This document shows positions 465 to 45,643 of a stretch of 46,334 nucleotides of DNA, in pieces. The notes beneath the pieces were generated by a model. It saw only the letters and a program-made list of their open reading frames with translations. It searched no databases and was not told the origin of the DNA. The position numbers and the translations under genes were made by a program. Every line of letters begins with the position of its first letter. The stretch's first letter is position 1. Source of the stretch: a virus. Lineage: Duplodnaviria > Caudoviricetes. The stretch lies in the IMG/VR virus record IMGVR_UViG_3300020045_000388, positions 1 to 46,334 of that record. One strand, 5' to 3'.

Positions 465-877
465 TTGTTCAAACATTTCTATCCAAACGTCCTGTTCCTG
501 TTGTGGTTCAGGCTTCTTACAAAACTCCGTGGTTTACCCCACAGGAAACCCAGCAGGCAATGGCACGGAAGATTACACCAGCAGAATTCCTGCGCCGTGA
601 TGAGCTTATCCGCCTTCGTGCTGCTCAATGTCCATACAAAGCAGGGGACACAGTGTTTCCTGTTAGAAAAGAGGACTATCAACAATATGGGGCGTTTGTT
701 GTCTCTGGTGTTCTTAATTCATACAAGGACACCGCAGTTGATTATGAATGGAGCAAGCAAGACAACCCATTAATTGTCACAATCAAGAGCCTGAAAGACA
801 TGAAAACTGTTATGTTCTGTTCTTCTTCATGGCTTGTTAAAACCAACATCCATCTCTCTATGGAAGAAGCTATATGA
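461..877 (+). CDS. Hypothetical protein
   Basis: 138-aa ORF, GAGG upstream, ATGA coupling at both ends. Confidence 0.75.
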   Translation: MIVQTFLSKRPVPVVVQASYKTPWFTPQETQQAMARKITPAEFLRRDELIRLRAAQCPYKAGDTVFPVRKEDYQQYGAFVVSGVLNSYKDTAVDYEWSKQDNPLIVTIKSLKDMKTVMFCSSSWLVKTNIHLSMEEAI

Positions 878-1560
878 AAGAGCTAACCATTGCTTTCTCT
901 CCATATGGTAATGCTGATTCTGTCTATCCCTTTGACGAGCTATTTGCTTATAAGCAGGACGCAGCACAGGTGGGGTTTGACGGCGCTGACGCCTTTCTTT
1001 TGTGGGGAGGAACTGACATTCATCCCTCTTATTACAACCAAAACCCTAACAAGTTTAGTGGTGCTCCCCCGTCTCCCTCTAACCGAGATCAATGGGAATG
1101 GAAGGCTATGCAATATTGCAAAGCTAAGGGCATTCCTATTATTGGTGTTTGTCGTGGGGCTCAGTTTCTTTGTGCTTTTGCGGGAGGTAAGCTCATTCAA
1201 CATTGTGACGGACACAATAATGGACACCACATGGTTTTAGATGTGTATGGTCATTATTACATGGCATCATCTAGCCACCACCAGATGTTAGATGTGCACG
1301 GCACTCAGCATGAGCTTGTTGCTTGGTCTGCACCAGCAAAGAGTTCTTTTTATTATGGAGAAACCAACGAAACACCAAAGCACATAGCAGACGGTCTATC
1401 AGCAGGCACGTTCCGAGAGCCTGAGGTAGTGTTCTTTAACAGCATTAATGCTCTTGCAATTCAGGGCCATCCCGAATGGATGCCTGCCCATGACGTTTTT
1501 GTGGATAAAACCATTAATTATGTCAATGAATATTTGTTTAGTGGTAAGGTTTGGAAATAA
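874..1560 (+). CDS. Class I glutamine amidotransferase-like protein (peptidase C26 / gamma-glutamyl hydrolase family)
   Basis: GGTDIHP, nucleophile elbow GVCRGAQ, SSHHQ, and catalytic QGHPE. Confidence 0.88.
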   Translation: MKELTIAFSPYGNADSVYPFDELFAYKQDAAQVGFDGADAFLLWGGTDIHPSYYNQNPNKFSGAPPSPSNRDQWEWKAMQYCKAKGIPIIGVCRGAQFLCAFAGGKLIQHCDGHNNGHHMVLDVYGHYYMASSSHHQMLDVHGTQHELVAWSAPAKSSFYYGETNETPKHIADGLSAGTFREPEVVFFNSINALAIQGHPEWMPAHDVFVDKTINYVNEYLFSGKVWK

Positions 1561-1578
1561 TTCCTTAAGGAGAAAATC

Positions 1579-2331
1579 ATGCGTTTAGGTACTGACCCAG
1601 AAATCTTGTTGCAAGACAGCAACGGCTCCCCTGTTTCCGTCATAGGCTTGATTAAGGCTGATAAATGGAATCCAATGCAAATCCCAGACATGGCTAAAGG
1701 CTTCACCTTACAAGAGGATAATGTTTCTCTTGAATATGGCATTCCTCCCGCCGCGTCCGCCGATGAGTATGTGCAATATATCCAGAGCGTCATGCAAAAG
1801 AGCTTGGAATATTTGCCCGGTCTTTCTTTCTCAAAGCTCTCTTGCACCATCTACCCTGAAGAACAGATGCAACATCCGTTGGCTTATGTCTTTGGATGCG
1901 AGCCTGATTTTGATGCGTGGACTGGTAAGGTTAACAAGAAGCCCGAGCCTCCTCACCCTTTGATGCGTTCTGCTGGTGGGCACATTCATGTGGAAACAAA
2001 GCGCGACCCTTTGGAAGTTGTCCGTAACATGGACTTGTTCTTAGGTGTTCCTTCTGTTCTTATGGACAAAGGTGAACAGCGTAAGCAGATGTATGGTGGT
2101 GCTGGTGCTCATCGTGTGAAGCCTTATGGCGTGGAATATCGCACCCTCTCAAACTTCTGGATTTTTGAGGAACGGCTCATTCGCTGGGTTTGGAACCAAA
2201 CAGAACGGTCTATCAACAGCCAGCACATCGACGTTATGGCAGAACAGGACTTGATTCTTGAGGCCATTAACAACAATAACAAAGCAGTTGCGCAGGCATT
2301 GGTTAACCAGTATAATTTGGAGGTGATTTAA
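1579..2331 (+). CDS. phiEco32-like COOH-NH2 ligase type 2
   Basis: GTDPE, EDNVSLE, FGCEPDF, RSAGGHIH and YGVEYRTLSNFW motifs. AAGGAG RBS. Confidence 0.88.
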   Translation: MRLGTDPEILLQDSNGSPVSVIGLIKADKWNPMQIPDMAKGFTLQEDNVSLEYGIPPAASADEYVQYIQSVMQKSLEYLPGLSFSKLSCTIYPEEQMQHPLAYVFGCEPDFDAWTGKVNKKPEPPHPLMRSAGGHIHVETKRDPLEVVRNMDLFLGVPSVLMDKGEQRKQMYGGAGAHRVKPYGVEYRTLSNFWIFEERLIRWVWNQTERSINSQHIDVMAEQDLILEAINNNNKAVAQALVNQYNLEVI

Positions 2332-2924
2332 TGCTATTCATTCCTGAAACAGCGGAAGACATTATCCGCTATTACAAAAATACGTTTGTGAAGTTTAAGG
2401 AGACAGGAGACACCCTGTTTTACATTAAACAGGTGAAGGATTCTGTTGTTCATGGTATTTCCCAAGACGGCACTCCCTTTGAACTTTATCTAAGCTCTGC
2501 TCATCCATATGAGGTGGACTATGTCTTGCCTCGTAAGAGCTATTTCCAATATGGCCCGCATGCCTGTTTGTTGCAGCGTGTCCCTGCTAAACAATATCAA
2601 CGAGGAATTTCACAAAACAACGTTTCTCTCAATGCCCTTCGTTCTAATGGGGGACAGGCGGATATGGGCCTTGATTTCTCCATTCTCATGGCCTTTGTGT
2701 CTAAACAGGTGTTTGTAAACCTCGACATGGCGGTAAATTCCACACACACCTCAGTGGTTTTGGCTCCTCGCTTTGCTTTTGTGCCTAGCACACGGAAAGT
2801 TTATGCAGATTTCTTGTGTGTTGGGCAGCTTTTGACAAAAAGAAAGCATCTCAAGTGCTTTCATAACGTCTTTCGTCCAGAGCTAGAAAAACTAGTCCTT
2901 GACACAGAGTATAAAGTGATGTAA
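2331..2924 (+). CDS. Hypothetical protein of the amidoligase cluster
   Basis: 197-aa ORF, TAATG-coupled, between two ligase genes. Confidence 0.75.
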   Translation: MLFIPETAEDIIRYYKNTFVKFKETGDTLFYIKQVKDSVVHGISQDGTPFELYLSSAHPYEVDYVLPRKSYFQYGPHACLLQRVPAKQYQRGISQNNVSLNALRSNGGQADMGLDFSILMAFVSKQVFVNLDMAVNSTHTSVVLAPRFAFVPSTRKVYADFLCVGQLLTKRKHLKCFHNVFRPELEKLVLDTEYKVM

Positions 2925-2925
2925 C

Positions 2926-3693
2926 ATGACTATTGCATACAAATACGGTCTATCAGACTCTCCTTTGAATAACTGCCCGGTGTTTACAGCTGGTGTGGAA
3001 TGTGAAATTGAGAGTGTTAAGAACCCAAATGAGGATTTTGCAGGGTTTTCAGTCACGGAAGACGGCAGTTTGCGCAATAATGGGGTAGAGTTTATCTCTG
3101 AACCGCTGCCTAAGACAGCTTTGCTGGAATGTTTTGACAATTTACATGCAGAAATCCTTTATTATAAGGAGGCAGAAGCCTTTAGCCCACGAACATCCAC
3201 CCATGTGCACATCAATTGTCGTTCTTTGGAACCTTCTCAGGTAAAAAATCTCGTTCTTTTGTATGCCCTGTATGAGGATTTCTTCTTTGCTATGTGTGAG
3301 CAGGGCCGACGAGACAACATTCATTGTGTACCACTGACAGAGACTTATTTGCCTGCTCTTTATGACAAAGACCTTACCATTTTGGTAGATCGGTGGCATA
3401 AATACACAGCCTTGAACATTCTTCCCTTAACTAAGCTGGGAACTGTGGAATTTCGACACTTGCAAGGCACCGCAGATACACAACTATTTCAACAATGGCT
3501 CACAACTTTGGAGAATCTCTGGACAATGGCTCAACGCGAGACAATTTCAGCAGAAACTTTAGCAGACGAAACACTGCTTAAGGCATGGTGGTGTCAACTC
3601 TTTAGCCACAGCCCTCGCATCATGGCACTCTCTCCCTCTTTCAATAACATCATTGCAAACAGTTTGCTTGATGTTAAAATGGCTTTTATCTAA
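2926..3693 (+). CDS. Putative amidoligase (COOH-NH2 ligase fold)
   Basis: GVECEIE, DGSL, EFIS, STHVHIN, KYTALN and TVEFRH motifs. Confidence 0.85.
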   Translation: MTIAYKYGLSDSPLNNCPVFTAGVECEIESVKNPNEDFAGFSVTEDGSLRNNGVEFISEPLPKTALLECFDNLHAEILYYKEAEAFSPRTSTHVHINCRSLEPSQVKNLVLLYALYEDFFFAMCEQGRRDNIHCVPLTETYLPALYDKDLTILVDRWHKYTALNILPLTKLGTVEFRHLQGTADTQLFQQWLTTLENLWTMAQRETISAETLADETLLKAWWCQLFSHSPRIMALSPSFNNIIANSLLDVKMAFI

Positions 3694-3752
3694 GGCGTTC
3701 CAGGCACGGAACGGGTCTATCAACGTCGTTTAATCGACAGAGGAGATATATT

Positions 3753-4988
3753 ATTTGTGGCATCGTCGGGGTAGTTATTAAGGCCAATAATGGTCTTACC
3801 AAGCGTATAGAAGATAGCTTCTATAATTTATTGTTTGTTGACACTTTGCGTGGCGACGACTCAACAGGCATCATTGCCGTGGAGAAAGACACAACCTTTC
3901 ACATCATGAAGGAGGCATCAGAAGCTGCATGGTTTATCCCACAAGCTCAGTATAGCAAAGTAGGTAAGGGTATGTGGACAACAGGAAAGGCCTTAATTGG
4001 ACACAACCGTAAAGGCACTATGGGCAAGGTTGAGGATGAGAACGCTCACCCTTTTGTTGTTGACGATGACTTTGCAATGGTGCATAATGGAACTCTCACT
4101 GGTCATCATAAGCTGGCTGCAACCACGGTAGACAGTGAAGCCCTTGCCATCGTTCTTGCCAAAGCCTTTAAGGAGGAGCATTACAAAGAAGCTTTGGAGG
4201 CTCTGTTGCCCGACGTTAATGGTGCATATGCTGTGTCTATCTACGATCAGCGACATAACAAGGTGCGTCTGTTGCGTAACAAGGAACGACCAATGGCCTA
4301 TGTGGAGACTTCTGACGCATGGTTTTTTGCTAGCGAGGGACTAATGCTACATTGGATTCTTGCTCGTAATGGCTACACTGCACAGGATGTGTCCTCTCTT
4401 AAAACTGTACCGGAAGACACCGTAGTTACCTTTGACTTAGACACCAACACTTGTCTTGAGGAGAAAATAACAATAAAAAAATATACGCCCCCTCTCGCCA
4501 TCACTATGGTGCAGGGTGGGGCTACCCGTACAGCGAAGAAGATTTCCACGGTTACGGAATTTGCTGAGCTATCTAAGACTGCTTTTAAACGTCTGCGTAA
4601 ATCGTTGATGGGTACAAAGCTGGAATGGTGGGTAGACGACTACATTGAGGCAGGGTTTCCTAAAACCTATGATGAAGGGGAGACGGTGTTCAACATCATG
4701 GGCACCGCTAGTAAGATTGATTTTCAGAATACTGTTTTGTCTACCGTAGATATTAACGAGCTTAGGAAAATTCCAGACGATTTGATTGATAGGCTGTGGT
4801 GTGGCGACGTAGTGGAGGTTTCTTACAACACAAGTACCCGTAGCCTGTCTGTCTATGTTACCAATGCTTACCCCTTGCCTGTGTCTTATAAAAAGGTTAA
4901 GAAGGCTCCTGTCCCCGTTGTAATTGATTCCGTCTACATCCAAAGGAAACTCGATGAACAAGAAAAAACTGTCAATTTTATGCACTAA
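3753..4988 (+). CDS. Class II (Ntn) glutamine amidotransferase with inferred AUU start
   Basis: Extending ORF 3831 upstream gives ATT-TGT-GGC-ATC-GTC-GGG = (M)CGIVG, then RGDDSTG, GHNR, HPF, HNGT and DSE. AGGAG lies 7 nt before the ATT. Confidence 0.88.
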   Translation: MCGIVGVVIKANNGLTKRIEDSFYNLLFVDTLRGDDSTGIIAVEKDTTFHIMKEASEAAWFIPQAQYSKVGKGMWTTGKALIGHNRKGTMGKVEDENAHPFVVDDDFAMVHNGTLTGHHKLAATTVDSEALAIVLAKAFKEEHYKEALEALLPDVNGAYAVSIYDQRHNKVRLLRNKERPMAYVETSDAWFFASEGLMLHWILARNGYTAQDVSSLKTVPEDTVVTFDLDTNTCLEEKITIKKYTPPLAITMVQGGATRTAKKISTVTEFAELSKTAFKRLRKSLMGTKLEWWVDDYIEAGFPKTYDEGETVFNIMGTASKIDFQNTVLSTVDINELRKIPDDLIDRLWCGDVVEVSYNTSTRSLSVYVTNAYPLPVSYKKVKKAPVPVVIDSVYIQRKLDEQEKTVNFMH

Positions 4989-5664
4989 TGGTACCCGCAA
5001 AAGCACCAGCCTCAAGGAAATTGCCAAAGGACTATCAACAATTCTAGGGCACAAAGTGCTACGCACAACCAAGCTGTCCTTTAGGCGTAAACAATTCAAG
5101 TATGGACAGGGAGTTGATAAGCTCACGCAATATCAGTGGTTTGTAGATCAAGGTATTCCTGCTTTGGAATTTACAACCGATATCCAAACAGCCCTAACAT
5201 GGTGTATGGAAGGAGGCACCGTTTTTGGACGTAAGTTCTTGAACAGCTCTTGCGGTAAGGGGATTGTTGTGTTTGATAAGGACACCGCGGGAGCATTATG
5301 GGGCTGCCCAGTCTACACCCTCTACAAGAAAAAGAAACGTGAATTTCGTGTTCATGTTTTCAAGGACCAAGTGGTAGCTGTTGTAGAAAAGAAACGTAAA
5401 AAGGAATGGGATGGAACACAAGACACCAAAATCAGGAACCTTGCCAACGGGTACGTCTTCGTTCAAGACGTGGTGGATGAACCGGCAGGCTTACGAGAGC
5501 TGGCGCTCCGAGCAGCTCAGATTAGTCCATCTGACTTTCGAGGAGTGGATGTTGGTTACAACGAAAAGAAAGACGAACTCTTTGTCATCGAAGTAAATTC
5601 AGCGCCGGGCATTCAGGGAAACAACATTGGTAAATATTTGGAGGCTATTGTCAATCATGTTTAA
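4954..5664 (+). CDS. ATP-grasp ligase (RimK-like)
   Basis: DKLTQY, GKGIV, EFRVHV, RNLANG, GVDV and IEVNSAPG motifs. AAGGA RBS before ATG 4954. Confidence 0.85.
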   Translation: MNKKKLSILCTNGTRKSTSLKEIAKGLSTILGHKVLRTTKLSFRRKQFKYGQGVDKLTQYQWFVDQGIPALEFTTDIQTALTWCMEGGTVFGRKFLNSSCGKGIVVFDKDTAGALWGCPVYTLYKKKKREFRVHVFKDQVVAVVEKKRKKEWDGTQDTKIRNLANGYVFVQDVVDEPAGLRELALRAAQISPSDFRGVDVGYNEKKDELFVIEVNSAPGIQGNNIGKYLEAIVNHV

Positions 5665-9597: not shown

Positions 9598-9822
9598 ATG
9601 AATACAAACAAGCAAATTAGATTTCTTGCCATTGAGGCTGGACTTATCTCGACAGAATACAATGGTTTTGACCAGATTGAGTTAACAGGAGCACAACGAA
9701 AGTTTGCTGAGTCAATTATCCGTGAGTGCGCGAAACTCACATTAGATTTTAAAAATGACGAGCATTATAGTGGTTGGCTAGACTATCGTGACGAGATTAA
9801 GAAACATTTTGGAATGAAATGA
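9598..9822 (+). CDS. Hypothetical protein
   Basis: 74-aa ORF ending IKKHFG, with ATGA overlap into the polymerase gene. Confidence 0.65.
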   Translation: MNTNKQIRFLAIEAGLISTEYNGFDQIELTGAQRKFAESIIRECAKLTLDFKNDEHYSGWLDYRDEIKKHFGMK

Positions 9823-10949
9823 ACATTCTCTCCTTGGACACCGAAACGTCCATTTTCAACAAAGGGAATTGTTATGATAAACGGAACAATCTTGTCTGCT
9901 ATAGCTTTGCTACTGACACTGGGACTAATGGTGCTGTACAATGGCCCGAGCAGGGACCCCAGTTGGTTCGATTATTGGACGCTGCAAATCTTGTTGTGGG
10001 TTTCAATTTTAAGTTTGATCTTCATTGGTTCATAAAAGAAGGCGTTTATGAACTAAGAAATAAACAGGTATGGGACGTACAAATTGCAGAATTCATCCTG
10101 TCCAATCAAACTCTACGCTTTCCCTCTCTTAACGAGACATGTGAGAAATATGGCATTCCCTTAAAGACGGACATTGTTAAGGAGGAATACTGGAACAAGG
10201 GGATAGACACAGCGGACATACCATGGACCATCCTATCTGAGTATGCCGAGCATGATGCTGTAATCACGCTGCAATGCTATCATGAGCAGAGAAAGCTTAT
10301 GACACCAGCACAGGTAAAGCTGTGCTACCTGATGTGCCAAGACCTTCAAATCCTACAAGAGATGGAAATGAACGGCCTTCCTTTCGATGAACAACTTTGT
10401 GACACTAGATCACTGGAGGTAGATGACCAAATATCTGCGTACAAGACTGCCCTCGCCAATATCTATCCTAATATTCCCATTAACTTTGGTAGTAATGACC
10501 ATCTGTCTGCCTTTCTTTATGGCGGTGTGGTTAAAGAAGAGGGTAAAGAGCATGTCGGATTCTTCAAAACAGGGGAGCGTAAGGGACAGCCCAAATACAA
10601 AAACATAATCATTGAGCACATCCTGCCTAGGCTGTATGAACCTCTAAAGGGTTCGGAGATGCAGAAGGAAGGAATCTTTGCTACAGATGAGGGAACTCTC
10701 CGCAAGCTCAAGGGTAAGAAGGGGGTGATACAACAAATCCTAGAGCTGTCTAAGCTGGAGAAGCTTAATGGAACCTATTACAAGGGACTGGTTAAGCTTC
10801 GCAAAGAAATGAATTGGGAAGAAGGAATTTTACATGGACAATTCAACCAAACCACTGCTCAAACCGGAAGGCTTAGTAGCTCCCGCCCCAACCTGCAAAA
10901 CTTCAGCTCCGACCTGCAAGACATCTTCATCAGCACCTATGTGGACTGA
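9819..10949 (+). CDS. Family A DNA polymerase, N-terminal subunit (3'-5' exonuclease, thumb, start of palm)
   Basis: ExoI LDTET, ExoII FNFKFDL, ExoIII YAEHD, and TGRLSSSRPNLQN near the C-terminus. Confidence 0.92.
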   Translation: MNILSLDTETSIFNKGNCYDKRNNLVCYSFATDTGTNGAVQWPEQGPQLVRLLDAANLVVGFNFKFDLHWFIKEGVYELRNKQVWDVQIAEFILSNQTLRFPSLNETCEKYGIPLKTDIVKEEYWNKGIDTADIPWTILSEYAEHDAVITLQCYHEQRKLMTPAQVKLCYLMCQDLQILQEMEMNGLPFDEQLCDTRSLEVDDQISAYKTALANIYPNIPINFGSNDHLSAFLYGGVVKEEGKEHVGFFKTGERKGQPKYKNIIIEHILPRLYEPLKGSEMQKEGIFATDEGTLRKLKGKKGVIQQILELSKLEKLNGTYYKGLVKLRKEMNWEEGILHGQFNQTTAQTGRLSSSRPNLQNFSSDLQDIFISTYVD

Positions 10950-11088
10950 TCTTGTCTACCGCCTACGGAAACGTGCTGAGATTCGACGGCAGATTCCTAG
11001 GGGAGAGCCAGACCGTATTGCAGATTTATTAGAAGAAGCAGCGAAAGCTCTAGAAAGTGTAAATGAACAAAGAACTAGAACATCTTGA
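10939..11088 (+). CDS. Small hypothetical protein between the polymerase halves
   Basis: MWTDLVYRLRKRAEIRRQIPRGEPDRIADLLEEAAKALE, the internal ATG of ORF 10834. Confidence 0.6.
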   Translation: MWTDLVYRLRKRAEIRRQIPRGEPDRIADLLEEAAKALESVNEQRTRTS

Positions 11089-11251
11089 ATATAACGACAG
11101 CATTGTTAATTTTATTAGCATTATTAATCAGCATGGGGCACAGAAGGTTTTACATGATGTGCAGGCCTATTATCCGGGCTTCTTTGATGAAATTAAAATC
11201 CAAATCAATCGCTTCCCTGTTAAACCAGTGGCGGCGCTCCTAAGGAAATAG
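11063..11251 (+). CDS. Small hypothetical protein between the polymerase halves
   Basis: 62-aa ORF overlapping the previous gene. Confidence 0.55.
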   Translation: MNKELEHLEYNDSIVNFISIINQHGAQKVLHDVQAYYPGFFDEIKIQINRFPVKPVAALLRK

Positions 11252-11311
11252 TCGCTTGAGTACAAGCTCCGTGGAAAACACTGTAGTAAATACAGAGGAG
11301 GATGCCCTACC

Positions 11312-12047
11312 ATGCTGATTCAATGTGACGCGAGTCAGTTGGAATAGCTACGATTGGCGTACTATTTTACAACTAGCAAATGACCAAGTAGGGATTGATG
11401 AAATTATAAGTGGAGAAGACACCCATGCAAAGAATCAAACTGCTTTTGACCTTCCTTCTAGGCTCATTGCTAAGATTTTCCTCTTTAGAACCATCTTCCG
11501 AGGTAGTGGCTGGAGTTTTGCTAATGATCCTGATTTCATGCATGTATCTAGCTCGTCCAAGTTTTGGGACGGGATGAATGAGAAATTTTACAAGAAGTAT
11601 AAAGGCATTGATGAATGTCACAGCAAATGGAAGGACATTGTTGTAGCGGGAAGGCCTATAGAAGGCCCTATGGGACGTTCTTGGACAATCCCCATGGGTA
11701 GGGACTATAAAGGGGAACTAAAGGTTCCTTGGACCACTCTCTCAAACTACCCTGTTCAGGGCACAGGAGCAGACGTAATGATGATGGCTAGGATTATGGC
11801 TTACAAACGTATTAAACAAGCTAAAATAGATTGCCTGTTTCGTTCCACTGTCCATGATTCTATTTGTGTAGATACACATGCTTCCAATGCACAGGCTCTA
11901 GCCAATCTCTTTGCTCAAGTCTTTGATGATTTACCTATGGAAATCTACAAAGTATTTGGGTATGAGTGGGTAGTGCCTATGGCATGTGAGACTAAGGGTG
12001 GCCCCAACATGAAAGACCAAAAGAAAGTTTTACGAAACGATAAATAA
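11312..12047 (+). CDS. Family A DNA polymerase, C-terminal catalytic subunit; frame broken by a 10-nt insert at 11345-11354
   Basis: GGAGG RBS, then ATG gives MLIQCDASQLE*. WRTILQLA resumes 10 nt later. Motif B RLIAKIFLF, NYPVQGTGAD and motif C TVHDS are intact. Confidence 0.88.
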
Positions 12048-12050
12048 TAC

Positions 12051-12080
12051 TTGACAAGACAGCCTAAAGTATGGTATACT
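12051..12080 (+). promoter_or_regulatory. Sigma70-type promoter, twin of the 7699 promoter
   Basis: TTGACA (12051-56), 18-nt spacer with TGn, TATACT (12075-80). It shares AGTATGNTATACTGAA with the first promoter. Confidence 0.85.
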
Positions 12081-12086
12081 GAAGGT

Positions 12087-12551
12087 ATGAACACATTAAA
12101 ATTAACACAGAGACTTCTACGAAACTCAACACTCGATCCCGAAACAGGTTGTTGGAATTGGGATAATAGTAAGAGTAGATGGGGATATGGACATATCAAT
12201 GTAGCTGGAAAGATAAAACTAGCACATCGCGTTTCTTATGCCACATTAAATGGCGCTATCCCAGATGGCCTGTGTGTTTTGCACAGGTGTGATAATCCTG
12301 CTTGTATTAACCCAGAACATTTATTTTTAGGAACTAATGCAGATAATGTAGCAGATAAGGTAAAGAAAAACAGACAGAGTTTAATAGGACAGGGAAAAGG
12401 AGAGAAACACACTATGTCGAAGTTGACAAACAAAGATGTATTGAATATCCGTGCTTCCTCTTTGTCCCAAAATAAGTTAGCGGCTATGTATCATACAACG
12501 CAGTCTAACATTAGTTTAATCAGAAGTCGTGCTCATTGGGCACATATTTAA
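12087..12551 (+). CDS. HNH homing endonuclease
   Basis: GCWNW, GYG, AHRVSY, and VLHRCDNPACINPEHLFLGTNADN. Confidence 0.9.
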   Translation: MNTLKLTQRLLRNSTLDPETGCWNWDNSKSRWGYGHINVAGKIKLAHRVSYATLNGAIPDGLCVLHRCDNPACINPEHLFLGTNADNVADKVKKNRQSLIGQGKGEKHTMSKLTNKDVLNIRASSLSQNKLAAMYHTTQSNISLIRSRAHWAHI

Positions 12552-42602: not shown

Positions 42603-43967
42603 TTAATATCCTGTATGGGACGAGCGCCCTTGGTGTGTAAGTTCTGAGCCCTCAAGAGACTCGGCATATTCATCCTCTTCTGCTTCCTCTTTAGTAGGGG
42701 CTTCTAGAAGATTGTCCAGCATAAGTCCTAAATAAGCAAAAGCATCCACTTGGTCATCATGTTTTCCCCGTGGAAAAGACAGACATTCATTCTCAAAGAT
42801 GGGGTACCAGTCCCCTTCCTTATCAAACTTAAGACCATGTGCTCGTGTTCGTGCCTGAATACTCCGGGCACGTGTTGTTTTATCTTTTCCGCCATGCTTC
42901 AAGAGCAAAAGACTGATGAAAGTGTTGGTCTTAATCATCTCTTCTCGTAAGAAGGGACCAATTGACTTGGAAACCTGCATGTCTTCTACACCAAATGCTA
43001 CAGGATCATACAAACGCTGTAGGGCTAAGAAAGTATCGACAATCTCACGACCATCCATACGCTCTCTGATGACATTCTTGACATGTATAATCTTTTCTTC
43101 GTCTACTCCAGCTACAACAAACACTGAAAAGTCAGCTTTCTCTGTTTCAGAGATAGCCAAGTCAGCTGTGATGTAGTAATTAAGCCTTTTTTTCCTGTCT
43201 TCTTCGTTGATGTGCTGAAAGTCTCCTCGTTTAAAGAAGGAAACACTCTCATCAATGGGTTCATTGAGGTATTCTTGACTGTAAATATCTGTAGTGCCAT
43301 CTTTAACAGCATCCTCATACAGCATTTTAAAGTCTTCTTTGCTCTTTTTAGAAGGCCAGAGGAGCTTAGAGAAGTCAGAATTGTGTGCACGGTATTTAAC
43401 CGCTTTCCACATCATCTTTCTTTTGGAGTATTGCTTAAGGTCTTCAAGGACAGTTTGCTTGTCTGAGGGATTGGGCATTAAACGCTCTAGAAGGCTGTCA
43501 GCGTGCAATATGGTACCCACCATCCGGACAATGCCAGAATCGCTCCTACAGGGCAGTAGGGCTCCTTTAAACCACCTTCGCATCTTCTCCCTACGTTCTT
43601 TGTTCATGACAAGCTCGTCATTCTCAAAGTCGTCAATCATAATGATGTCCGGGCGAGAGCCATTCCAAATCAATCCACGAAGCTTCTGTTCCGCTCCCTT
43701 GGCAATTATTCGGAACCTATGTCCCCCCGTACACTCAACTATTATGTCCGTTTCAGTGTCTTTAATAAACTGAACGAGCCCTTTTTCATTTCGTTTAATT
43801 CCAAACAAGTCAATCAGCTCTTGGTTGTCCTGAAGCTCTTGTTTGAATGTTCCTAAGAACAGAGCTGCCTGTGCTTCCGTGTCGGAGACAAGCAGCATAA
43901 ATTTTCTTTCCTTGAATAACAAGGTTGCTAGGCCGTAGCCTAATGTCACTGCCGTAGATTTAGCGTG
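42603..43967 (-). CDS. terL: Terminase large subunit, exon 2
   Basis: HAKST (second half of Walker A), RG...RPDIIMIDDFE (Walker B), VGTILH, SQEYLN, ADLA, and FPRGKHDDQVDA. Confidence 0.92.
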   Translation of the reverse strand, partial: HAKSTAVTLGYGLATLLFKERKFMLLVSDTEAQAALFLGTFKQELQDNQELIDLFGIKRNEKGLVQFIKDTETDIIVECTGGHRFRIIAKGAEQKLRGLIWNGSRPDIIMIDDFENDELVMNKERREKMRRWFKGALLPCRSDSGIVRMVGTILHADSLLERLMPNPSDKQTVLEDLKQYSKRKMMWKAVKYRAHNSDFSKLLWPSKKSKEDFKMLYEDAVKDGTTDIYSQEYLNEPIDESVSFFKRGDFQHINEEDRKKRLNYYITADLAISETEKADFSVFVVAGVDEEKIIHVKNVIRERMDGREIVDTFLALQRLYDPVAFGVEDMQVSKSIGPFLREEMIKTNTFISLLLLKHGGKDKTTRARSIQARTRAHGLKFDKEGDWYPIFENECLSFPRGKHDDQVDAFAYLGLMLDNLLEAPTKEEAEEDEYAESLEGSELTHQGRSSHTGY

Positions 43968-44639
43968 CATTGTGTTGCAGGTAATTCGTTTTTAATTACC
44001 TTCTGCATGTTACCATGCAGAGCAGACTATATCTTCATTAACTAAGTGAATTAATTTCCATGATTTTATCTGCAAGGTCTTTTCGGATACCTTGAGTTTC
44101 TTCTGAAACTCTCTGCCCCGTAAGACCAATAGTAGATTCAAAATCTAGAGCCAAAGAAGCCACATCGTTTTTATGAACTAAGTAGGGCATCATACAACGT
44201 AGAGCATGTGCTGCCTGCTTGGTAGAAAGGGTCCAAACATACTGTTTCTTCCTGTTACCAATAGCTTCTTGCTTCACTCTAACATTGCCCCCAAAGATTT
44301 TCTGTAGTTTCAGAAGAGGTTCAAGTTTAACCTGACCCACTCCAATTCTCAGATAATATCCAAGGTACTTATCCCCACCTCTAGATTGGATTTTAACCCA
44401 ACCCTCTCCATCAAAAAATCCAGCAGCCCACGCAAATTCATGCGATATTGACATAATAATTCCTATTTAAGTTAAGATTCCCGTTTCGAGTCCACTAGGA
44501 CCCTACGCCTTTCGGCTAGTCGTTACACCTTCCTCAACAATGAGGCTTGGCTCGGTATTGTCCCAAAGGAGGTTCACCGAATTAGAGAATTTTTAGAGGG
44601 GCCACGCATCGTATTTATATCGCGCCCGATTGGTAGTTA
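43968..44639 (-). mobile_element. Group I self-splicing intron (672 nt) in terL
   Basis: Exon 1 ends in U and the intron ends in G. IGS GCGUG-GCCCCUC pairs with exon 1 GAGGGGU (P1) and exon 2 CACGC (P10). P7 elements ACGACUAG and AAGAUAUAGUCU and P9 hairpins are present. Splicing restores APRG-HAKST. Confidence 0.92.
44038..44454 (-). CDS. Intron-encoded LAGLIDADG homing endonuclease
   Basis: AWAAGFFDGEGWV, L..LQKIFGG and MPYLVHK. It lies between the two P7 strands. Confidence 0.9.
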   Translation of the reverse strand: MSISHEFAWAAGFFDGEGWVKIQSRGGDKYLGYYLRIGVGQVKLEPLLKLQKIFGGNVRVKQEAIGNRKKQYVWTLSTKQAAHALRCMMPYLVHKNDVASLALDFESTIGLTGQRVSEETQGIRKDLADKIMEINSLS

Positions 44640-44789
44640 ACCCCTCGGCGCTGCCATTGCTACAAACCTGTCAGGCCCGCAGCAGAGTTCCCACAATTCC
44701 TTATGGAAAGGAGGAGAAGCAGCACGTCCATCAAAACGTGAGGACAAAACAGAACCCACGAAGCCTTCGACAACTTCTGCGGTGAGCAT
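44640..44789 (-). CDS. terL: Terminase large subunit, exon 1 (50 codons, not in the track)
   Basis: MLTAEVVEGFVGSVLSSRFD...PPFHKELWELCC...VAMAAPRG, TAATG-coupled to the upstream HNH gene. Confidence 0.9.
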
Positions 44790-45091
44790 TACTTTCGCTT
44801 GCTTTCCCGACGACTGGTTTGGCTTTTCATGGAGCCATCCTTGTTACGGGAGAAGCTCTTGTTCGTGCTCTCAGAAACCACACGGCTATTGGCCTTGGTG
44901 TTGGCCCCACCTTTAGATAGTGGTTTAATATGGTCAATATTGGTACCATCCCCAATGTGTGTAGTACCAGCAGCATTAGAGGCACGACGAAGAGTTGTCC
45001 TCTCGCTACGGGCTTTGATTTGTTCTGGGCGACTAGCATACTTCTCGTATTCCGTCTTGTAATCCCTTTTCCCGTTCTTCATATACGGCAT
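44789..45091 (-). CDS. Small HNH endonuclease next to the terminase
   Basis: RDYKTEY...IDHIKPLSKGG.N...N.RV.S...N.S. Confidence 0.85.
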   Translation of the reverse strand: MPYMKNGKRDYKTEYEKYASRPEQIKARSERTTLRRASNAAGTTHIGDGTNIDHIKPLSKGGANTKANSRVVSESTNKSFSRNKDGSMKSQTSRRESKRK

Positions 45092-45543
45092 TTTAAATAC
45101 TCCACTAGTTTGGTAAATTCTTCCAATGTTCCGTTCTTTTTGAGATCATTAGCTCTCCAAGAAATTACTTGAACATTTCCTTTCACATAACCACGACTGC
45201 TATCTATCCTGTCTAAAGAAGGATTGTTCGGGTTAGTCCCTTGCCCTTTATGTCCCTGTCTAATAAATAGAGGGATGCCAAAAACAGGACAGAGTTCTGG
45301 AATTTGAATGTCCTCTACATCCAGATTAAATTCCCATTCCATTTTCTTAGCACGGCTCCGGGCCATGTGGAGGAGATAAGCTGCTGGATTTTTAGTACGC
45401 CATTCGTAATTATAAACATCGTATTTTGTTCGACCCTCCGCTAGGCCTTCCTGTCGTCTACTAAACATGTAGTCACGTGCACATTTTTTGCACTGTGGTG
45501 CCTTGGTTTCAAGGGTCGTACCACACTTACATTTAAGTCGCAT
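45079..45543 (-). CDS. HNH-like endonuclease
   Basis: CPVFGIP...PSLDRIDSSRGYVKGNVQVISWRAN..K and N-terminal Cys pairs. Confidence 0.82.
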   Translation of the reverse strand: MRLKCKCGTTLETKAPQCKKCARDYMFSRRQEGLAEGRTKYDVYNYEWRTKNPAAYLLHMARSRAKKMEWEFNLDVEDIQIPELCPVFGIPLFIRQGHKGQGTNPNNPSLDRIDSSRGYVKGNVQVISWRANDLKKNGTLEEFTKLVEYLKCRI

Positions 45544-45567: not shown

Positions 45568-45643
45568 TGGCGGCCGGGGATGGATTCGAACCACCAACAT
45601 GAGCGTTTGGAGTGCCCTGTTCTGCCCTTGGAACTACCCGGCC
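45568..45643 (-). tRNA. tRNA-Trp (CCA)
   Basis: Acceptor stem GGCCGGG/CCCGGCC, D-stem GUUC/GAAC, anticodon loop CUCCAAA, T-arm GGUGG-UUCGAAU-CCAUC, discriminator G and encoded CCA. 76 nt. Confidence 0.93.

Follow-up and report, generated by a model that had tools for sequence, protein, structure and literature searches.

How can an uncultured phage make its DNA polymerase when the catalytic motif of the only polymerase gene in its assembly is broken by ten surplus nucleotides that open with an in-frame stop codon? From comparisons with related genes, we consider it probable, at roughly three chances in four, that ribosomes hop over the 10-nt gap, an uncommon mode of decoding, to yield a 241-aa protein and that the gap is the leftover of a homing-endonuclease cassette.

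A split polymerase gene with a 10-nt coding gap

The DNA analysed here (the window) is an entire phage assembly of 46,334 bp that encodes capsid, portal, terminase, primase, helicase and amidoligase proteins; a cluster for glutamine amidotransferase, a phiEco32-like COOH-NH2 ligase, amidoligase and ATP-grasp proteins occupies 874-5664 (+). The family A DNA polymerase is divided between two genes. Its N-terminal half (9819..10949, +; 3'-5' exonuclease and thumb; Pfam DNA_pol_A_exo1 and DNA_pol_A) terminates just 5' of motif A. Beyond it, the ORF list gives a 62-aa frame (11063..11251, +) with the C-terminus ...AALLRK, which matched no Pfam or PHROG family and whose stop, in many intact relatives, overlaps the polymerase start (TAATG). 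The two-gene layout is ordinary in this group, and the cultured phages QDWS535 and MEP401 share the split and have intact starts. The spring-water phage L126 (MW202697.1) has, between its two polymerase genes, a gene (2261-2467) whose annotation is R67 dihydrofolate reductase.

The C-terminal gene opens at ATG 11312, from which frame 0 reads MLIQCDASQLE and stops. These eleven codons (11312..11344, +) include the catalytic Asp6 and end in GAA (11342-44), the candidate take-off codon. The 10-nt coding gap that follows (11345..11354, +) begins with UAG (11345-47) and ends with the predicted landing triplet GAU (11352-54). The remaining 230 codons of the C-subunit (11355..12047, +; Pfam DNA_pol_A), with motifs B and C, restart at UGG (11355-57). 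All of these positions agree with an earlier note on this DNA, which had proposed that excising the 10 nt restores a canonical motif A, DASQLEWR. Among 20 deletion positions tried, only 11345 and the equivalent 11346 do so, and 11 plus 230 codons give the 241-aa subunit it had described. It was also correct that the GTG-initiated ORF at 11325 lacks the catalytic Asp and that the window holds no other polymerase: tblastn with an intact relative returned no second motif A, and the ORF at 9819-10949 is the other half of the same split polymerase, not a second one. Motif A of Klenow (IVSADYSQIELR) aligns without gaps to window codons 1-11 through the intact relative L001, and the intact relative aligns gap-free to motif A of both Klenow and Taq.

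The rest of the gene appears undecayed, as had been claimed, with 230 codons after the gap and a dN/dS of 0.15 against L001, the nearest intact relative. Across the family, taking pairs for which dS is measurable, the median dN/dS is 0.13 for 18 carrier pairs and 0.14 for 129 intact ones. These values suggest that the polymerase gene is alive despite the gap. We regard this evidence as supportive, not conclusive, because the cassette moves and dN/dS may reflect the time before it arrived.

The gap is real and recurrent

The 10-nt insert opening with TAG is real and recurs; it reflects more than chance and is no assembly slip. The earlier note had suggested searching related polymerase genes for inserts at the same Glu-Trp junction, and the relative L020, at 67% aa identity, carries one of 10 nt exactly there, identical at 8 of the 10 bases. 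Three other studies supplied contigs, in runs X1, X2 and X4 (depths 4, 9 and 66), that span the gap with no deletion listed; this evidence consists of contigs of relatives rather than raw reads, and the X1 contig has a depth below 5. The same runs also contain relatives that diverge from the window in the gap region. The X2 and X4 contigs have 6 extra bases in the leader (11252..11311) with no gap change listed, and a contig of run X3, guessed to be RNA, ends within the gap at 11349. At the protein level only, the predicted proteins P0002, P0008, P0119, P0123 and P0129 open with the same out-of-frame S-Y-D/E, and P0129, judged from its protein alone, would combine a GAG take-off with a Glu landing codon. 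A scan of viral contigs for further 10-nt gaps returned the L020 contig only. No cultured gap carrier was found among phage-collection matches, in which the start was read in 4 of 25; QDWS535 and MEP401 are intact.

A family of 1-10-nt gaps

To place the 10-nt gap among its relatives, we examined 235 sequences drawn from protein and pattern scans plus five named records. An N-terminal match was present in 219 (absent from 16) and a start in 210 (absent from 9 more), which reduce to 127 distinct gene starts. Gaps of 1-10 nt within codons 9-13 occur in 36 of these, and 91 are intact. The gaps measure 1 nt (7 carriers), 2 nt (8), 4 nt (1), 5 nt (1), 6 nt (8), 7 nt (6), 8 nt (3) and 10 nt (2). The take-off codon, for which this analysis took the final codon still in agreement with the consensus protein, is Gln9, Leu10, Glu11 or Arg13, and Lys9 in L126, whose +1 gap lies in an A run and may be a sequence error.

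Two regularities emerge at the codon level. First, in the 21 distinct gap types the first gap codon is a stop in 11 (UAG 9, UGA 1, UAA 1), one of AGG, AGA and AUA in 6 (2 each) and another codon in 4 (UUG 2, AGC 1, CAU 1); in the phage genes none of AGA, AGG and AUA is rare, at 23%, 15% and 16% of their amino acid. Second, where the gap has at least 4 nt, its final triplet agrees with the take-off codon in two or all three bases in 16 of 17 types, a level reached by 19% of 289 other triplets. The pairing score is our own, and the counts throughout this family are phylogenetically non-independent. Some cases are textbook-like (CUU-UAA-CUU, CUU-UAG-CUU, CUU-UAG-CUA and CAA-AGG-U-CAA). Because these signals are codon-level and in-frame, they point to the ribosome rather than to RNA cutting.

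Among the frame-restoring triplets of the window (AAU, AGC, UAC and GAU), GAU alone has two bases in common with GAA; the landing triplet of L020 is GUA, likewise after GAA. The near-match noted earlier between GAA and GAU thus stands at two of three positions, but the pair is imperfect and not a same-tRNA pair. Under normal wobble no single tRNA would read both GAA and GAU, which counts against the hop. The common +2 type (CUU-UAG) has its better-pairing triplet at +1, in the wrong frame, and is not well explained. Tandem duplication alone could also produce the likeness between landing and take-off codons.

Out-of-frame N-termini in P0011, P0014, P0034, P0044, P0065, P0083, P0089, P0094, P0105 and P0110 suggest gap types outside our DNA set. 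A pattern scan for a UAG+1 gap after codon 8, hinted at by six proteins, gave no matches, and one locus (L237) was set aside as off target. The start region of L118 has the Shine-Dalgarno (SD) sequence and leader of the +1 class and a CUU codon but no gap, and is a possible revertant.

A strong Shine-Dalgarno sequence and a 5' hairpin

Carriers are further distinguished by what lies upstream of the gap. In the window a strong SD sequence, GAGGAGG (11295..11301, +), sits 10 nt 5' of the ATG with a duplex energy of -12.0 kcal/mol. Duplexes of -8 kcal/mol or stronger occur in 34 of 36 carriers vs 6 of 90 intact genes, calculated with a generic anti-SD motif.

The conserved structure is predicted to be a 5' hairpin in which the leader and first codons pair with codons 7-11. 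In the window it would join 11310-11321 to 11332-11342 (11310..11342, +; -12.2 kcal/mol), its 3' side reaching the first base of the take-off codon. Alone, the window's hairpin is not significant (z -1.43; 21 of 200 shuffles as good), and in the ensemble of a longer stretch a rival fold dominates that also pairs codons 1-6 with codons 9-12. The same register is found, with two-sided changes, in all five Glu11 carriers; it was derived from the window and L020, and the independent carriers L192, L193 and L198 keep 9, 9 and 10 of its 11 pairs. Intact genes placed in this register have a median of 6 pairs, with at least 8 in 9 of 90.

Folding energies across the family agree with this prediction. 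In 29 of 36 carriers the gene's own leader gives a more stable fold than swapped-in ones (mean -2.9 kcal/mol), and the same comparison in 36 sampled intact genes was not significant. Folding through the take-off codon yields -10 kcal/mol or better in 32 of 36 carriers; the corresponding counts in 90 intact genes are 4, 6 and 9 when folded to codons 9, 10 and 11, and 38 at codon 13. The energy gain runs up to codon 9, 10, 11 or 12-13, tracking the take-off codon. Among Gln9 and Leu10 carriers, fixed-register covariation is only partly clean, because registers shift between classes: all three leader pairs are present in 14 of 27 vs 3 of 90.

The 8-bp stem originally proposed around GAA-UAG does form on paper (8 of 8 pairs, three of them G-U, -8.3 kcal/mol), but its ensemble pair probability is 0.000 and L020 keeps 6 of 8 pairs, so we rejected it as the operative structure. 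A possible 4-bp mini hairpin within and beyond the gap (GCUA/UGGC; 11347..11358, +) is weak at -2.5 kcal/mol. Its tetraloop contains the two bases that differ in L020, and its pair probability is 0.6-0.8 in L020 and below 0.15 in the window. By extension of a proposal made for T4 (Wills et al. 2024), we infer that the 5' hairpin drives the forward hop; it could instead serve solely in initiation control.

Link to homing endonucleases

What is new here is the finding, in ten carriers, of orphan copies of the polymerase start codons, mostly with an endonuclease gene between the copy and the gene itself. Such copies lie upstream in 10 of 32 carriers and in none of 79 intact genes, comprise the first 6-10 codons and are 214-569 nt from the new start. 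In seven of the ten, an ORF of 160-180 codons separates the orphan from the new start; when tested, all seven ORFs matched PHROG endonucleases (phrog_3322/1035 in five, HNH phrog_374 in two), and none had a Pfam match above cut-off. The 3' end of the nuclease ORF encodes the SD sequence, and the nuclease stop overlaps the new polymerase start. When fragments in further carriers are counted too, 13 of the 36 carriers have endonuclease homology upstream, as does 1 of the 90 intact genes, the exception being L133; of the 13, seven are query loci that match one another and one has its match 409 nt away. The other 23 carriers, and the window, have no nuclease adjoining the gap.

Traces of such a cassette may nevertheless persist in the window. 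The 60-nt leader (11252..11311, +) is absent from coupled intact relatives and is probably a remnant of a mobile cassette's 3' end; one of its frames reads ...TEEDALPC*, which by eye resembles the end of the HNH gene in L193, ...PEEVTSLC*. Three other Glu11 carriers with a 7-nt gap (L192, L193 and L198) abut HNH phrog_374, whole or partial, and the gap ends in UACGAC in L192 and L193 vs UACGAU in the window. Given this neighbouring family and the similar gap ends, the window's cassette likely descends from the phrog_374-linked family.

The gap state is scattered on the polymerase tree, with 25 changes in 122 rows, 17 of them forced by strong branches, against a shuffled mean of 29; the tree was built by a quick method, and 5 of 127 rows were dropped as shorter than 120 aa. 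Identical proteins carry different cassettes (L037 and L199; L104 and L121). By analogy with T4, we infer that the gap would protect DNA against the nuclease. The earlier note had ended on the idea that replication is gated by the insert; such a purpose is unsupported, and the comparative evidence points instead to a homing-endonuclease cassette, which that reading had overlooked.

Two nucleases elsewhere in the window were considered and rejected as partners of the gap. A free-standing HNH endonuclease gene directly follows the polymerase C gene (12051-12551, +), but by eye similar ORFs follow intact genes too. A phrog_3322 endonuclease (45079-45543, -; 35-40% identity), which belongs to nuclease family 1 of the relatives, lies 33 kb away; a tRNA-Trp(CCA) gene (45568-45643, -) directly precedes it.

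Other mobile elements were noticed along the way. In L133 (1-700), a family-1-like nuclease sits between the polymerase halves and abuts an intact start with no orphan copy; insertion of this kind may be how the polymerase gene first became split. A group I intron in the window (Rfam RF00028, 61 bits; 44003-44682, -) contains a 138-aa nuclease ORF (44038-44454) and lies just upstream of a 455-codon terminase large-subunit ORF (42603-43970), and the intron probably belongs to the terminase gene. Two further shared sites of interruption lie in the polymerase C gene, at codon 56 in L023, L030, L031, L037, L074, L089, L092, L136 and L212, and at codon 150-152 in L026, L027, L028, L226 and L229. 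These interruptions, often followed by an HNH ORF and found in carriers and intact genes alike, are likely introns.

Ribosomal bypassing and its alternatives

We therefore favour, at the probability given at the outset, a hop over the gap together with an origin in a homing cassette. The ribosome would initiate at AUG 11312 and stall once UAG occupies its A site, with peptidyl-tRNA-Glu paired to GAA. Having by then left the ribosome, the leader and first codons would zip up with codons 7-11 and push the ribosome forward; the tRNA would re-pair, at two of three positions, on GAU ten bases downstream, and decoding would restart at UGG. The initiation SD sequence may also re-engage the ribosome across the looped-out hairpin and so set the hop length. 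As to origin, an HNH-type endonuclease gene would have inserted after codons 6-10, which remain as the orphan. The 3' end of the cassette would supply a new SD sequence and a fresh copy of the first codons, and would add a few bases 2-3 codons further on, spoiling its own target and leaving the protein unchanged. The nuclease could later decay or disappear, as in the window, and the cassette move between lineages by recombination. The hop from GAA over UAG to GAU and UGG was the central suggestion of the earlier note; it is now the best reading, backed by the gap family, whereas of what was attached to it the stem is not conserved, the micro-intron is very unlikely and the gating is unsupported.

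The foremost competitor, although improbable, is a plain +1 frameshift at GAA-UAG that gives ...QLE-SYD-WR... in a polymerase tolerating three extra residues. The +1 frame is open across the gap, and 7 sequences repeat S-Y-D/E/V, with Y-D present in L192 and L193 as well; common ancestry of the gap plus the landing constraint would also account for the shared Y-D. Re-pairing on AAU would match GAA at one position, extra sense codons occur in 0 of 91 intact starts, and the spacing equals that of Klenow and Taq. Genuine +1 cases (CUU-UGA) do exist in the family, and the database proteins P0003, P0070 and P0104 read SQLQLEWR. A DNA scan for L-x-L, however, returned no codon but UAG or UAA at the middle position (2 of its 3 matches on target), so the QLQLE of these three, which are known as proteins only, may be a gene call with TAG read as Q.

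Somewhat less probable again is that the hop or shift regulates polymerase level through release-factor or tRNA supply, the link to nucleases being incidental. Just 1 of the window's 49 long ORFs terminates in UAG, decoding after the gap would resume at UGG and the phage has a tRNA-Trp gene, the majority of carriers have no adjacent nuclease, and prfB-like CUU-UGA sites occur. Set against this are the orphan copies with nuclease genes, found in carriers only, near-identical phages that lack any gap, and an A-site codon that varies freely between types.

We give marginally less weight still to a dead or crippled gene, whose carriers would rely on the polymerase of a co-infecting phage during the spread of a selfish nuclease cassette. 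Because this cassette moves from lineage to lineage, downstream conservation could be older, and both cultured relatives are intact. Yet an ORF of at least 200 codons is unbroken in 27 of 36 carriers vs 78 of 91 intact genes, gaps persist after nuclease loss, depth reaches 66 in X4, and a dead gene would not retain landing triplets, an SD sequence and a covarying hairpin.

Excision of the 10 nt from RNA as a micro-intron, which the earlier note had offered as an option, or skipping by RNA polymerase, would give a perfect motif. It is very unlikely, since 1- and 2-nt gaps occupy the same motif; moreover the gaps share no ends, their signals are codon-level and in-frame, and Rfam yielded no group I or II intron core at the gap, its only matches in the window being the group I intron at 44003-44682 and a tRNA. 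Least probable is complementation between an 11-residue peptide that provides the Asp and the product of the GTG ORF at 11325: the polymerase is already split and this ORF is open for 240 codons, but 11325 has no SD sequence by eye, and in L192, L193, L198 and most +2 carriers a downstream-frame stop lies just upstream with no later start. TAG reassignment was rejected, as the 10-nt offset would stay and TAA or TGA closes 48 of the 49 long ORFs.

Implications

The gaps affect how these genes are annotated. Out-of-frame N-termini without the catalytic Asp occur in 21 of the best 119 non-self database proteins, and the GenBank CDS of MW202697.1 begins downstream of motif A.

More broadly, and with expectations short of even odds for the whole, the family would represent a minimal, tunable module in which an SD sequence and one start-codon hairpin produce a hop of 1, 2, 4, 5, 6, 7, 8 or 10 nt. 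On the same joint reading, hopping would proceed on ordinary bacterial ribosomes at high efficiency, with two-of-three landing and no nascent-peptide signal; unrelated homing endonucleases would invade a catalytic motif without introns or inteins; and a single allelic series would include natural in-frame stop hops and both frameshifting and bypassing. Events near the ribosome exit site are described as the main unsolved problem of bypassing in the available text of Wills et al. 2024 (bioRxiv 10.1101/2024.12.09.627546), which proposes exit-site mRNA pairing as the force behind forward bypassing in T4. With its 21 natural variants, a 60-nt cassette would allow hopping driven by such pairing to be tested directly in an E. 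coli reporter. The same series would test whether natural stop hops exist; the 6-nt class of the relatives, if hopped, would be natural in-frame examples.

Comparison with known systems

T4 gene 60 and yeast mitochondrial byps are established cases of programmed bypassing, and Hau3 has partial support, according to the portions available of three accounts (bioRxiv 10.1101/2022.08.31.505936, PMC5009743, PMC10732093). Our literature search, which covered mostly papers outside subscription and their main texts, found no account of bypassing in a PolA gene. The word 'polymerase' has 0 occurrences in the accessible text of Manning and Atkins (bioRxiv 10.1101/2022.08.31.505936), and a listing in their supplementary tables is conceivable.

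Hau3, a Streptomyces phage, has a 10-nt bypass in its terminase gene, for which an SD sequence and structure 5' of the gap are proposed stimulators and for which a UAA variant gave a junction peptide detected by MS in E. coli (Antonov et al. 2023, PMC10732093, as far as available). The gap length and the blocking of a conserved essential gene are alike, but Hau3 has a hungry UUA codon and a proposed regulatory role, against UAG at the gap start here, and that account, in the part available, draws no link to a nuclease. In synthetic stop hops, a stop sits between matched codons and 9 nt yield one residue (Weiss et al. 1987, per the available part of PMC5009743); the same part of that review states that a natural in-frame stop hop was not known (Atkins et al. 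2016). The relatives' 6-nt class (CUU-UAG-CUU, CUU-UAA-CUU and CUU-UAG-CUA) has this form, whereas the window's own gap is out of frame. In prfB, the gene for release factor 2, a +1 frameshift occurs at a CUU-UGA shift site with an internal SD sequence just before it. CUU-UGA is found in six distinct relatives, unlike prfB with no internal SD sequence just before the shift codon, and the window has GAA-UAG.

The closest parallel is T4 gene 60, whose bypass sits in a MobA homing-endonuclease element (Manning and Atkins 2022, bioRxiv 10.1101/2022.08.31.505936, citing Bonocora 2011). According to the accessible text of that study, the T4 insert protects from MobA nicking and often outlasts the nuclease, and take-off and landing pairs in the T4 family are all wobble-compatible. 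To judge from these partial accounts, both systems, here in some relatives though not beside the window's gap, place a free-standing nuclease in a conserved motif of an essential gene, with an element that contributes a new start as well as a homologous copy of host codons, then a non-coding gap that is retained where the nuclease is gone. Both have a stop or AGG in the A site, similar take-off and landing codons and a 5' stem-loop, here predicted, behind the take-off.

The differences are equally clear. The target here is PolA motif A rather than the large subunit of topoisomerase II, the gaps are 1-10 nt rather than about 50, and take-off is at codons 9-13. Landing is often mismatched (two of three for GAA/GAU in the window and GAA/GUA in L020), although it is exact or wobble in several other gap types. 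Neither the window nor L020 has a UUCG take-off loop, and the window has no mini-SD 5-7 nt before landing, the nearest GGA (11341-43) ending 8 nt before 11352. The T4 nascent-peptide signal lies 25-30 residues from the P site (PMC5009743, in the part available); with 11 residues before take-off here, there is no room for one. Two nuclease families are involved here, phrog_374 and phrog_3322/1035. The analogy to T4 gene 60 drawn in the earlier note holds for the gap, the A-site stop and a predicted 5' stem-loop, and fails for the target gene, the matched landing, the mini-SD and the nascent peptide. By this comparison, the system appears to work like the T4 gene 60/MobA design in miniature, as a variant of it rather than a member.
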